The translations under genes and the position numbers were made by a program. From positions 3,386 through 67,385 of the forward strand of contig JALUYA010000002.1 of NCBI GenBank assembly GCA_027018875.1: a stretch of DNA of 64,000 bases, read 5' to 3'. This DNA comes from Gammaproteobacteria bacterium. Its GTDB lineage: Bacteria; Pseudomonadota; Gammaproteobacteria; JAKDMP01. The number at the start of each line of letters is the position of its first letter. Positions within the stretch are counted from its first letter, which is position 1. Below, piece by piece: positions 1 to 43,130 of the stretch. Below the pieces are notes generated by a model. It was not told the DNA's origin. It did no database searches and was given only the letters and a program-made list of their open reading frames with translations.

Positions 1-498
1 GTTGTTCGAGGTATAGGAGATCTCTTCCATGTGCGAGGTGGGTGTGGTCGCGTAGACCGCTTCGTTGTCGCCGTAGGTGCCGCTCTTGAGCGCCAGCTCT
101 TGGCCATCGAGGCAGAACCGGTCGCGGCTGGTGAGGTTCACCGGCGCCGTGGTGCCATCATACGGCCAGCTCGAAGGGCAGCGCTTGATCGCCGAAAGGC
201 CGCCGATCGTCGTGTCCCAGCCGAGCAGACCCGGACCGGAACCGCTGGCATAGACCAGGGCGAGACTCGGCGCGAGCCCACCGGCGCCACCCGGGGCGGG
301 GAGCGGGATCGTGTAGGCGGCCCCTCCCGTCGGAGTCACTACAAAACTGCCCGCAATGGAGCCCACCGCGGTGGCGGCCTCGGCCAGCGCATCGCCAAGG
401 ACGATCAGCGCCAATGCCGCCAGCGCCGTGAGAATCAGGCGCGGTGCGGCACCCCGCAGACAAGAAGGGAATCCCCCGATCCGCGGAACTTCACGCAC
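1..498 (-). CDS. N-terminal part of an SpvB/TcaC-domain secreted protein (probable RHS/YD-repeat toxin-like), runs off left edge
   Basis: Manual translation from GTG 498 with no stop to base 1: hydrophobic leader LILTALAALALIVLGDALAEA, then GSFVVTPTGGAAYTIPLPAPGGAGGLAPSLALVYASGSGPGLLGW..GLSAIKRC..DRFCLDGQEL, typical of SpvB/TcaC N-termini. Confidence 0.8.
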   Translation of the reverse strand, partial: MREVPRIGGFPSCLRGAAPRLILTALAALALIVLGDALAEAATAVGSIAGSFVVTPTGGAAYTIPLPAPGGAGGLAPSLALVYASGSGPGLLGWDTTIGGLSAIKRCPSSWPYDGTTAPVNLTSRDRFCLDGQELALKSGTYGDNEAVYATTPTSHMEEISYTSNN

Positions 499-506
499 AG
501 CCACGA

Positions 507-533
507 GTTGCGGGTTGCGGGTTGCGGGTTGCG
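507..533. repeat. 7-bp tandem repeat (GTTGCGG) x~4
   Basis: gttgcgg gttgcgg gttgcgg gttgcg at 507-533. Confidence 0.95.
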
Positions 534-718
534 CTTATCACTTGAATGGGCATTGGCCTTCTCCGGTTAACTGGCCCGCCACTCTGACCCCAGGGCGGCA
601 TTGAACTGTTTTTGTATAGCACAAAATTTGCAGTTTGTCCAGACCAAAATTGCTCATGCTAGCCCAAAGCCGTAATCTTCCCTTTGGGTATCGGGAGGGG
701 AGGTGACAGTTTGGAATA

Positions 719-1036
719 ATGGCAGAATCAATGGCGGCGTATGCTCAACCTTTGCTCGACGAGGCAGGCGGCTCTCAGGAGCAAATGCAGAATGCGATTT
801 CAATTGCTCAGACGGAGAAAGAACAAAGAGATAGCCTAGCCAAAATGCAGCCCGCGCTAAAAATGGACAACGACGAGTTTAATGAGTTTTGTGAATCAAT
901 TGTCGTGCCAATGATTGGGCACCATCACGAAATGTTTCCAAGTATGATGCACGCAGCTTCCGAAACCATACATATTAAGGAAACTCTGATCAATTCCGCT
1001 TTCGGCGACAATACGAGCATTGTGTTGCGAGCATGA
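719..1036 (+). pseudogene. hypothetical protein fragment; 3' end reads into an IS5 end
   Basis: Lower-GC 105-aa ORF whose last ~19 codons lie inside the IS5-like end starting at 979. Confidence 0.4.
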
Positions 1037-1230
1037 ACGAGGGAGGCGGAATGCGCCAGGGAAGCCTTGCCGAGGAAGGGTTCGAGAAGTAGCGCAAGCC
1101 GAAGCCTCGCGAGCGGTTCCTGGAGGGGATGGAGCGGATTATTCCGTGGGCGGAATTGGCGGCGGCGATCGATCCCTACTATCCCAAGCCCAAGGGTGCT
1201 GGCCGGCGCCCGATCGGGATTGAGCGGATG
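979..1230 (+). mobile_element. IS5-family remnant (left end plus degenerate transposase N-terminus)
   Basis: TTAA (975-978) then GGAAACTCTGATCAATTC. ATG 1051 reads MRQGSLAEEGFEK*RKPKPRERFLEGMERIIPWAELAAAIDPYYPK..GRRPIGIERM, an IS5 transposase N-terminus with in-frame TAG at 1090. Confidence 0.8.
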
Positions 1231-1481
1231 TTCAAGTCTAATAATGTCATGTGTGTTATGTTTTGATATGACATGAGCGTTTCGTATCGTATACTCGGGC
1301 CGAACCTGCAAATCTGTCGAGCGCTACTAACTTATCATCTAGGGTAACATAGGCTTTTCAGTGCCCCCTGCATGCAAGATCAGTTGAGATGCCAAAATCC
1401 GCGTTAGTAGTGCCACCCGGCAGGGAGAAATCCTTTGGGATTGCTCAAGGATCCGGAATATTTGCTTAAGGCTAATCCATA

Positions 1482-40319: not shown

Positions 40320-40469
40320 CAGCCGTCCTTCTTGATTTTCTCAAGTTTGTGGCGCTTCATCTTCATGCGGCGACATTCAGCGACCAATTTTTGTAACGGG
40401 TGTAGTCAAACGGCCGCCATGTTCTGTGTGAAAGGTTGACTGCGCATTCCGGTGAAACTGGACAGTCAT

Positions 40470-40557
40470 TCCGGCGCAAAGTGGACAGCTGATCCGGCGC
40501 AAAGTGGACAGCTGATCCGGCGCAAAGTGGACAGCTGATCCGGCGCAAAGTGGACAG
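40470..40557. repeat. 23-bp tandem repeat x~4 at IS21 end
   Basis: TCCGGCGCAAAGTGGACAGCTGA starting at 40470, 40493, 40516 and 40539. Confidence 0.95.
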
Positions 40558-40608
40558 TTGTCGGAGCGAAGCGACGCGGGGTTGTCATTATGAGTTCAGG
40601 TGTCCAGT

Positions 40609-41346
40609 TTAGGTCAACTTTTTTCTGCGCTTTCTCATGGAATCTCCCTTGAGATTAATCTGGTAGGCGTTGTGTATGAGCCGGTCGAGGATGGCGTCAG
40701 CCAGGGTGGGATCGCCGATCAGTTCATGCCAGTTTTCGACGGGGAACTGGCTGGTTACGAGTGTGGCGCGCACGCCATAGCGGTCCTCCAGGATCTCGAG
40801 TAAATCGCGCCGATGTTCGTCCTTGAGTGCGGCGGTGCCGAAGTCATCCAGGACCAGGAGATCCGATTTGGCGAGGGCATTCATCAGCTTGGGATAACGG
40901 CCGTCCCCTTTAGCGGTGGAGAGGTCCTGGAAGAAGCGTGATACCCGCACGTAGAGGGCGTTCAGCCCATCACGACAGGCCTTGTGAGCCAGCGCACAAG
41001 CCAGCCAGCTCTTGCCGATGCCGGTGGGGCCGGTGATCAGCACATTGTGGTGGTCACGGATCCATTGCGAGGTGGCCAGTTTGGTCATCAGGGCCTTGTC
41101 CAGGCCCCGGGGATGACGGTAGTCGATGTCCTCGATGGCCGCCTGATGCCGGAGCCTGGCGCGGCGCAGCCGCGTCTGAAGGCGACGGCTGTCGCGTTCG
41201 GTCATCTCTCTGTCGGCCATCAGGCCCAGGCGCTCCTCGGTGGAGAGCGCCTCGATGTCCGGCATCTTGAGTTGTTCTTCAAAGGCGCGCGCCATACCGG
41301 TCAGGCGCAGGGCATGGAGTTTGTCCAGTGTGGGGGGTGTCAGCAT
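40609..41346 (-). CDS. istB: IS21 helper ATPase IstB
   Basis: GPTGIGKS, LVLDDFG, LADAILDRLIHNA. Confidence 0.95.
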   Translation of the reverse strand: MLTPPTLDKLHALRLTGMARAFEEQLKMPDIEALSTEERLGLMADREMTERDSRRLQTRLRRARLRHQAAIEDIDYRHPRGLDKALMTKLATSQWIRDHHNVLITGPTGIGKSWLACALAHKACRDGLNALYVRVSRFFQDLSTAKGDGRYPKLMNALAKSDLLVLDDFGTAALKDEHRRDLLEILEDRYGVRATLVTSQFPVENWHELIGDPTLADAILDRLIHNAYQINLKGDSMRKRRKKLT

Positions 41347-41363
41347 CGCTTTCTCCTTATCAG

Positions 41364-42921
41364 TCAGTGGTAATACCCGCCACCCCGGATATTGGGGTGG
41401 GCAATGGGTTTAGGGGTGGCTTCCTCCGCTTCTGGCAGCGCCTGGCGGTCGAGGCCGTTCTTGAGGATGGATTGCAGGCTTTTGTAACTGGTCGCACCTA
41501 ATCGCAGTGCCCGCTGGCAAGCGGCCTCGAGCCGTTCATCCCCATAGGACTTGCCCAGCCGCATGATCCCTAAACAGGAGCGGAAGCCCTGCTGAGGATG
41601 GGCGCGGGAAGACAGGATGGTGGCGACCACCTCGGCGGTGGCCGGCCCGGTCTTTTCCGCCCAGTGCACCAGGCGTTGAGGGGTCCAGTGTGCGTATTGC
41701 TGGTGGGCCTTGGGCATGTGCCCGGTCAGTGTGGTATGGCGCCCTTTCAGGGATGAGCGCCGATGACTGGCGACCCGCTTGTTATGGTGCAGCAGTTCCA
41801 CGGTATGCGCCGTGATGCGCACGTCCAGTTCCTGTTTCACCAGCTGGTACGGGACGGAGTAGTAATGCCCCAGCACCTCGACATGATAATCGATGTGGAC
41901 CCGGGCCTTCTTCCACTCGGCATAGGTGTAGCGTTCGGCAGGCAGGGGCTTCATGGCTGGCCGGTCCAGCTGCTCAAACAGCGCCTGGCGGCAGCCGGGC
42001 AGTTTCTTGAAGGGCTTGGTGTTTAACATATCCAGCAGTTCCCGGATGGCGGCATTGAGTTCGGGCAGAGAGAAAAAGGTGTGGTGACGCAACCGGGCCA
42101 GGATCCAACGTTCTACCAGTAAAACGCTATTTTCCACCTTGGCCTTGTCACGGGGGTGACGGACCCGGGCCGGCAGAATGGCGGTGCCATAATGATCTGA
42201 GAGATCTTCGTATGTGGCGTTCGCCTGGGGTTCATAGCGACAGGGCCGGGCAACGGCACTCTTCAGGTTATCCGGAACCAGCAATGCAGGCACGGCGCCC
42301 AGAAATTCCAGGCAGCGGATATGCGAGGCAATCCAGTCCGATAATCCCTGGGTCCAGGTGGCCTCGGCATAGGTGTAGGCGCTCGCGCCCAGGGTGGCGA
42401 CAAAGATCTGGGCCTCGCGGATCTCCCCCGTGAGCGGGTCAACCACCGGCACGGTCTGGCCAGCGTAGTCGACGAACAGTTTCTCACCCGCACGGTGATG
42501 CTGGCGCATCACCAGATCCAGCTTGCCCGCCCAGGCCCGGTAACGATCACAGAACTGGCTGTACTGCAGCCCGTCGGGATAGTCGGCCTTGTACTCCTCC
42601 CAGAGCAACAGCAGGGTCACCCCCTTGCGGGCGAGCTCCCGATGAACCTCGGCCCAATCCGGCAAAGGGCGGGCGTCACGCGCTGCTTTTGGCAAGGTGG
42701 GAAACAGCTGCGCCTCCAGTTGGCGGTCATCCCATGCTTCGGGCAGTGGCCAGCTGAGCCCGGCCATCGTCGCACGGCGCAGGTACTCCGCCACCGTGGT
42801 CGGTGACATCGACAGACTGCGGGCAATCTGCCGCCGTCCCAGACCAGCCTCCCAGACCAGCCTCCCAGGCCAGTCTCAATACTTGTCTTATCTTGCGCAT
42901 GGATTTCCTCTTATTGGCCAT
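41364..42921 (-). pseudogene. istA: IS21 transposase IstA, frameshifted near its N-terminus
   Basis: True start MANKRKSMRKIRQVLRL at 42921 is out of frame with the DDE body (FVDYAG, PDNLKS, KAKVE) because of a 13-bp duplication at 42838-42863. Confidence 0.9.
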
Positions 42922-43015
42922 GGTCCCTCCTCAAAAAAAGCGAGAAGGATGCCATAGGCGTTGTGGAAATCCCGCGTCTGTCTTCGTTCAGCCGATTCCG
43001 GTCAGCAGCGAAAAA

Positions 43016-43130
43016 CTGTCCAGTTTCAAACCGGAATCACTGTCCAGTTTGCCCCGGAATTAGTGTCCAGTTTCAGTCGGAATGGGTGTCCAGTTTGCCC
43101 CGGAATCAGTGTCCAGTTTGGACCGGAATA
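43016..43130. repeat. five degenerate ~23-bp subterminal repeats of IS21
   Basis: Repeated TGTCCAGTTT....CGGAAT units. Confidence 0.9.

Follow-up and report, generated by a model that had tools for sequence, protein, structure and literature searches.

The 64,000-nt window, the whole stretch of DNA analysed here, opens inside a long minus-strand reading frame of the SpvB/FG-GAP/Rhs type, near the 5' end of which lies a short tandem array. Read on the minus strand, GGAGAAGG (564-557) is followed by CCA, ATG 553, 17 bases and an array of a 7-nt unit (533-507), which thus begins 20 nt past the A of the ATG. The Shine-Dalgarno (SD) components are GGAG (564-561) and AAGG (560-557), then CCA and the ATG itself (553-551). 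The features of the region are as follows.

719..1266, no strand assigned: multi-copy mobile-element scraps upstream of the promoter and outside the switch, with 92-96% copies on contigs C43, C18, C37, C4 and C41
613..641, minus strand: putative promoter, a -35/-10-like pair (TGGACA, 17 nt, TATACA plus a TG extension) found as a loose pattern match
557..564, minus strand: SD site of ATG 553, with GGAGAAG.CCAATG common to the window and G005 (a homologue from another genus) and a pairing energy of -6.6 kcal/mol
491..553, minus strand: 20-codon frame of ATG 553 in the window allele, ending at TGA 493-491
507..533, minus strand: perfect heptamer array CGCAACC x3.86, the length-variable element, from repeat detection and allele comparison
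496..504, minus strand: in-frame GTG codons 504 and 498, lacking an SD by alignment and pairing energy, a possible leaky or coupled start
376..504, minus strand: signal-peptide-like region (hydropathy peak 2.76 and alignment A2), presumably cleaved
1..504, minus strand: 5' part of the SpvB/FG-GAP/Rhs long frame, running to the end of contig C2, with a probable continuation at C39:3-742

The array matches its unit at 100% of positions, the final unit being one base short. The long frame is out of register with ATG 553. Its only upstream stops lie at 540 and 537, and from 534 it is stop-free to the start of contig C2, a run of 1,306 codons at which the contig end cuts the gene; counted from GTG 504, 1,296 aa of the long frame are present, with 3,385 nt of C2 lying beyond the window. 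The original prediction saw here a slipped-strand phase switch that holds the gene out of frame. The elements it named (the SD-led ATG, the array and the TGA) all stand on re-reading of the sequence, and its arithmetic, by which the loss of one 7-bp unit or the gain of two puts ATG 553 into the long frame, is correct. Provided that translation starts at ATG 553, the array is a perfect tandem repeat in 5' coding sequence with a unit not divisible by three. The CGCAACC unit forms no other array of two or more whole copies in the 2.21-Mb assembly (95% complete). Perfect arrays of at least three copies number 28 in this assembly, three of them with a unit of 7 or 8 nt, and two long arrays are observed in the genome as against none in any of 20 shuffled genomes. 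The promoter-like pair lies 88 nt 5' of ATG 553 and has a similar counterpart in G005; a consensus promoter scan returned no sites, the pair scoring under its threshold. As for the scraps at 719..1266, we take their peptide to be IS5-like from its appearance, Pfam giving no match.

The long frame matches SpvB, FG-GAP, FG-GAP_3 and RHS_repeat in Pfam, all above cut-off. Its YD/Rhs repeat shell is evidenced by PF05593 (E 3.6e-16) and by 10 PDB matches, all to Rhs/T6SS effector proteins, and full-length relatives reach ~2,000 aa. The leader, as read from GTG 504, comprises a basic stretch, a hydrophobic core (residues ~22-41) and an Ala-rich end, behind which comes a conserved VGxIxG block. Delivery as a T6SS effector was considered and rejected: the marker models PF05488 and PF05943 have no match in this genome (95% complete), while matching as controls in 3 and 1 of 14 genomes, so neither TssC/VipB nor PAAR is found, and the N-terminus is signal-peptide-like instead. 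The TcA profile PF18276 likewise has no match in the genome, but control genomes gave none either. Unlinked Rhs cores with varied tips occur on contigs C13, C22, C27 and C3, on small or terminal contig pieces, and candidate immunity genes stand behind two of the four. On C27 (L106:443-1621 and 3-506), the gene behind a Lipase_3 tip encodes an ankyrin protein whose leader is lipoprotein-like. On C22 (L105:1-1169), a tip with an RNNNPGN motif but no Pfam match, which we take to be cell-wall-hydrolase-like from that motif, is followed by a secreted protein. Orphan tips and IS elements also lie downstream of the homologue in G003, in the core/tip layout of these four contigs. Judged from sequence, this layout suggests a polymorphic toxin that bacteria use against one another. 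The genome has another, distant gene of the SpvB/FG-GAP/Rhs type (C52:20519-29387, L018); it is at least 2,956 aa long with PKD-like domains, and its frame is open, with no repeat at the anchor region examined.

Close homologues number six (G002, G003, G004, G005, G006 and L089), at 49-60% identity. They are not syntenic, as their neighbours differ. All six have an SD-led ATG or GTG start in frame with the gene, which makes ATG 553 the likely start in the window as well. Five of the six lack the array, their leaders spanning 40-47 codons to the conserved block. The exception is G005, which carries a perfect in-frame array, CGCAGTC x8.71 (61 nt), beginning at the same ATG+20 nt offset and behind the same SD-ATG motif as in the window. 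Alignment of the two 5' flanks gives a z of 7.6, a score reached by 0 of 300 shuffles, with identity at 22/32 bases around the SD-ATG and 77/129 on the 3' side. Among nine family genomes, a pattern common to both units is found once in the genome of the window, once in G005 and not at all in the seven others, both places being this site. CGCAACC and CGCAGTC differ at two of seven bases, and the units are uniform within each genome. Different units, each perfectly uniform, suggest that the array has grown and shrunk repeatedly since the two genera diverged; such rebuilding at one place is what long-lived slippage would be expected to leave behind.

A genome scan with alignment A2 returned 12 loci, including one new close homologue (L089), and a scan with a single protein confirmed 0 of 599 candidate stretches. 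In the metagenome scan, a 19-mer adjoining the array gave 10 matches, all rejected as chance, the similarity extending over no more than 19-30 nt of flank. None of 21 viral contigs was positive, nor was any of the 602 candidates that the leader gave in a short-protein search. A representative-protein search with the G005 leader brought up no further allele, most of its matches being repeat-coded peptides from unrelated proteins. Of 28 distant SpvB-Rhs loci of the class, the 21 with a start inside 400 nt have no repeat between start and conserved block; seven have long N-terminal extensions and fall outside the count. Two unrelated and apparently exported proteins, P0110 and P0091, have N-termini encoded in a similar heptamer repeat just before the leader, a design that may be widespread. 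In a distant SpvB-Rhs gene from G250 (L065:2127-2061), an 8-mer x7.4 lies in the untranslated region ~150-200 nt before the ATG, possibly a counterpart of the array at the level of transcription.

Natural length variants come from two sources. Two public runs, X1 and X2, contain part of the stretch; both are vent metagenomes and were compared as contigs, X2 not covering the array. In X1 the sole contig over the array (record 3, 717 nt) spans window positions 283-1006 at a depth of 19.1, close to that of its neighbours (21.7-25.5). This contig lacks exactly 7 nt at 507, that is, its array is one unit shorter than in the window, and ATG 553 sits in the long frame. It differs from the window by eight further substitutions, of which the seven listed all lie between 313 and 473 and touch six codons, three synonymously and three non-synonymously; the contigs flanking it show no difference from the window over 297 and 323 nt. 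Because of the eight substitutions, the contig is best regarded as a distinct haplotype of this locus in the same organism rather than a corrected assembly. X1 may be the sample from which the window originated, in which case one sample holds two haplotypes; otherwise two samples differ. Since contigs drop rare variants, nothing about mixtures of lengths is drawn from X1. The second source is a remnant on C32 of the same genome (C32:116460-116690, L017), a dead 230-nt copy of the 5' end of the gene, lying behind an nth-like gene and without an SD. It retains ~2 repeat units, its array being 14 nt shorter than that of the window, and has lost the hydrophobic leader through a 72-nt deletion between short direct repeats, along with a further 1 nt. 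The length differences among window, X1 contig and remnant are whole units throughout. Both frame states exist in nature, the window being out of frame and the X1 contig and G005 in frame. The unit count thus varies across the natural copies and relatives looked at, and the invariant count that would have spoken against switching did not occur.

The explanation we favour, with somewhat better than even confidence, is that the array is a translational phase switch of the neuO/opa type, lying in the leader, and that the window allele is off or low. Ribosomes would start at the SD-led ATG 553, and slipped-strand mispairing would add or remove 7-nt units; one length class in three would then read through into the signal peptide and a ~2,000-aa Rhs protein, with the others stopping early. 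Changes in array length would be tolerated, since any added residues belong to the variable front of a leader that can be cleaved off. On this view the first codons of a secreted polymorphic toxin of the Rhs type would carry an inherited contingency locus, and the out-of-frame window allele would be off, or low through restart at GTG 504 or 498. This reading concerns natural alleles known from contigs; from these we infer slippage as the cause of the length differences and its reversibility, as we infer from sequence the start at 553, secretion and the antibacterial role. Against a switch stand the five of six closest homologues and the 21 of 21 distant leaders that do without an array. The genome has mutS, and with an array of fewer than four units the switching rate may be low. 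The SD-led GTG of G005 could also bypass the switch. The phase switch of the original prediction is thus partly supported: the variation of the array in nature, the alleles in and out of frame and the array of G005 all speak in its favour.

A rather unlikely alternative holds that the array is a tolerated microsatellite with no selected switch: insertions would be accepted at the front of the leader, the array would have survived there neutrally in one clade, and the window allele would be one more inactivating change in a gene killed by an IS21-like element. By comparison with the homologue L089, the protein probably resumes at C39:3-742, with ~5 residues missing in between. From C39:743 onward (L103), directly behind this segment, lies an IS21-like element (IstB_IS21, E 6.7e-54), past which no remainder of the gene was found at high identity. 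The gene in this assembly is therefore probably interrupted, at a point outside the window, and if C2 and C39 are correctly linked, this copy is truncated at any array length. Both out-of-frame alleles, in the window and in the C32 remnant, sit in copies that look broken. The in-frame alleles, on the X1 contig and in G005 (where the contig ends after 440 codons), are too short for judging whether the gene is whole. Decay appears common in such genes, since the homologues in G002 and G003 are also split; internal frameshifts or stops divide those of G003, G002 and G004 (L050:6252-12221; L052:1038-6993; L092, in that order). A triplicated 13-nt unit in an IS gene of the same window, and the related repeat-coded peptides of unrelated proteins, likewise fit mere tolerance. 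Repeats at N-termini arise from tolerance as well as from selection and can reflect tolerance alone, according to the available text of PMC3315296, and that of PMC4692102 considers phase switching improbable for the heptamer arrays of Xanthomonas and Nostoc. Nevertheless, a frameshifting 7-mer in an open frame would be expected to be lost or broken up wherever the gene has to remain on; the array is instead perfect in two genera and reaches 8.7 units in G005. The 1,306 stop-free codons on C2 imply that any decay is recent, whereas the array is old. A period locked in the off state could itself have admitted the IS, and the C2-C39 link is drawn from a homologue with its 5-aa gap, not from assembly. 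We therefore retain the phase switch as the preferred reading, while allowing that it may here sit on a dying gene: the window allele, which had been described as captured OFF, may rather be OFF and decaying.

Several other repeats were noted in passing. At 40448-43129 of the window lies an element, presumably of the IS21 type from its layout, that has 23-nt repeat arrays at each end. Within its transposase-like gene, a 13-nt unit x3.2 (42837-42877) falls in the first codons, apparently leaving the natural start of that gene out of frame. The other long simple repeats of the genome, C5:91682-91728 (8-mer x5.9) and C28:25549-25564 (16 C), both look intergenic, and a 7-mer x3 (C47:18025-18045) lies upstream of a small nucleotidyltransferase-like frame.

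The choice of start codon bears on a second alternative, which we regard as unlikely: the gene would start at GTG 504 (or 498), ATG 553 would open a short leader frame, and array length would only tune output, acting as a dimmer and not a switch. Its three states would be a fused extension, a stop right behind the GTG with coupled restart (as in the window), and a stop 67 nt inside the gene with occlusion. At the position of GTG 504, a start-capable codon is present in the window, in G005 and in P0084, where it is the annotated start, and the 43-codon leader that it gives is of typical length next to the 40-47 codons of the array-free homologues. The two off frames end at similar places in the window and in G005, one of them 5-11 nt past the first base of the GTG and the other 67 nt past it, so that restart could give a low state. 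This geometry was noticed post hoc and in these two genomes only. The aligned GTG of G005 has its own SD (-6.0 kcal/mol), and gene callers placed the start of the G005 protein (P0088) there. This choice is no evidence, since the caller passed over an in-frame SD-ATG. Also in favour of this alternative, 183 of 591 long frames in the genome lack an SD by a crude test. Nevertheless, pairing with the 16S tail is -6.6 kcal/mol at ATG 553 as against +1.9 at GTG 504 and +0.6 at GTG 498, bearing out the earlier remark that neither GTG has an evident SD, whereas every homologue that lacks an array starts behind a clear SD. P0082, moreover, has no start codon at the aligned position. A start at GTG 366, which has an SD-like site (-5.9), was rejected because it lies behind the leader and its product would be unexported.

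If the switch and the GTG restart operate together, the locus would be an old three-position dial on a weapon with which free-living bacteria compete on contact, giving full toxin, a trickle by restart or none, its unit rewritten over time and the dial kept; we hold this extended version to be quite improbable. Were the immunity gene on the same transcript, polarity would deprive cells in the off state of their protection and expose them to attack from on siblings, and the repeat would then generate non-self within a clone. Finally, an assembly error, which the original prediction named as a refuting outcome, with a true array one unit shorter and the 5' end of the gene intact, is very improbable. 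The sole independent contig over the array does show the shorter form, but it differs at eight other places and is another haplotype. By reasoning on assembly graphs, a 20-nt array has no repeated 20-mer, so that words of 21 or more should not loop to add a unit, and a 27-nt array should not collapse at 31-letter words. Even were the error real, G005 would still have its array at the site.

Repeat-driven phase variation is mostly known from surface and capsule genes of host-adapted pathogens, where it is explained by immune or phage pressure. The organism studied here is uncultured and present in vent metagenome samples too. A switch on a ~6-kb secreted Rhs gene in an environmental lineage, if true, points to other drivers, candidates being the cost of the weapon, avoidance of phage receptors and mixtures of armed and unarmed siblings; heterogeneity within a clone in bacterial warfare would become testable with a leader reporter. 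The locus also offers an unusual natural record of repeat evolution, with different perfect units at the same site in two genera and both frame states. We regard it as a probable further case of a known type of switch, on a gene class for which no published case was found. The natural evidence is better than usual for a lone repeat, and there is a real chance that this copy is dead. In the mostly open-access literature, as far as the accessible text of its sources goes (including PMC13183296, PMC4287609 and PMC3848433), nothing was found that describes a repeat switch for Rhs or related toxin genes.

The nearest parallel is neuO of the E. coli K1 prophage CUS-3, in which strand slippage at a 5'-coding heptanucleotide repeat gives product in one length class of three (PMC13001214; PMC9659370). 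The same sources give 3 to 53 heptamers, on and off alleles among genomes with 42 of 64 off, and measured switching, with 93% on and neighbours at 2-5%. As in neuO, the heptamer of the window lies in the 5' coding region, and alleles in and out of frame occur in nature. Unlike neuO, which encodes a capsule acetyltransferase of a pathogen and mostly has long arrays, the arrays here have 3.9 units in the window and 8.7 in G005, and the gene is a putative secreted Rhs gene of an uncultured environmental bacterium. The locus also differs in having different units in two genera.

In the opa genes of Neisseria, pentamer repeats lie in the signal-peptide region. Opa phase variation proceeds by slipped-strand mispairing (PMC3848433). 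As in opa, a frameshifting repeat sits in the leader of an exported protein and the repeat-coded residues would be removed; a 5-nt unit and multi-copy outer-membrane adhesins under immune selection are features of opa alone. The pil1 locus of Streptococcus gallolyticus, where a short upstream frame contains a repeat and stops at a point set by the repeat number (PMC3894217), is the model for the reading in which array length only tunes output. It acts through a transcription terminator upstream of its genes, whereas here one frame fuses to the gene. Leader-peptide attenuation of the pil1 type was rejected for want of an intrinsic terminator between leader frame and gene: no terminator-like site lies near 553-491, the single one at 371-351 is at chance level (1 found, 0.6 expected), and Rfam gives one weak match (E 1.5), far under cut-off. 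Dispersed heptamer families of the Xanthomonas/Nostoc type (PMC4692102) are ruled out by the single array in the genome. In natC of Pasteurella multocida, a switch between 2 and 3 heptamer units was proposed from natural alleles (PMC9176279). Both that array, known as a 7-bp insertion, and that of the window are very short; natC differs in that its repeat is mid-gene, in a glycosyltransferase, with both states in one outbreak.

PMC13183296 describes polymorphic toxins of the Rhs class that have orphan tips and immunity genes. The gene studied here resembles them in its YD/Rhs repeats and in the additional cores, whose tips vary and behind which lie small secreted or ankyrin genes. It departs from them in its signal-peptide-like and SpvB/FG-GAP front and in the kind of variation proposed, since the known variation of Rhs toxins is the exchange of tips.
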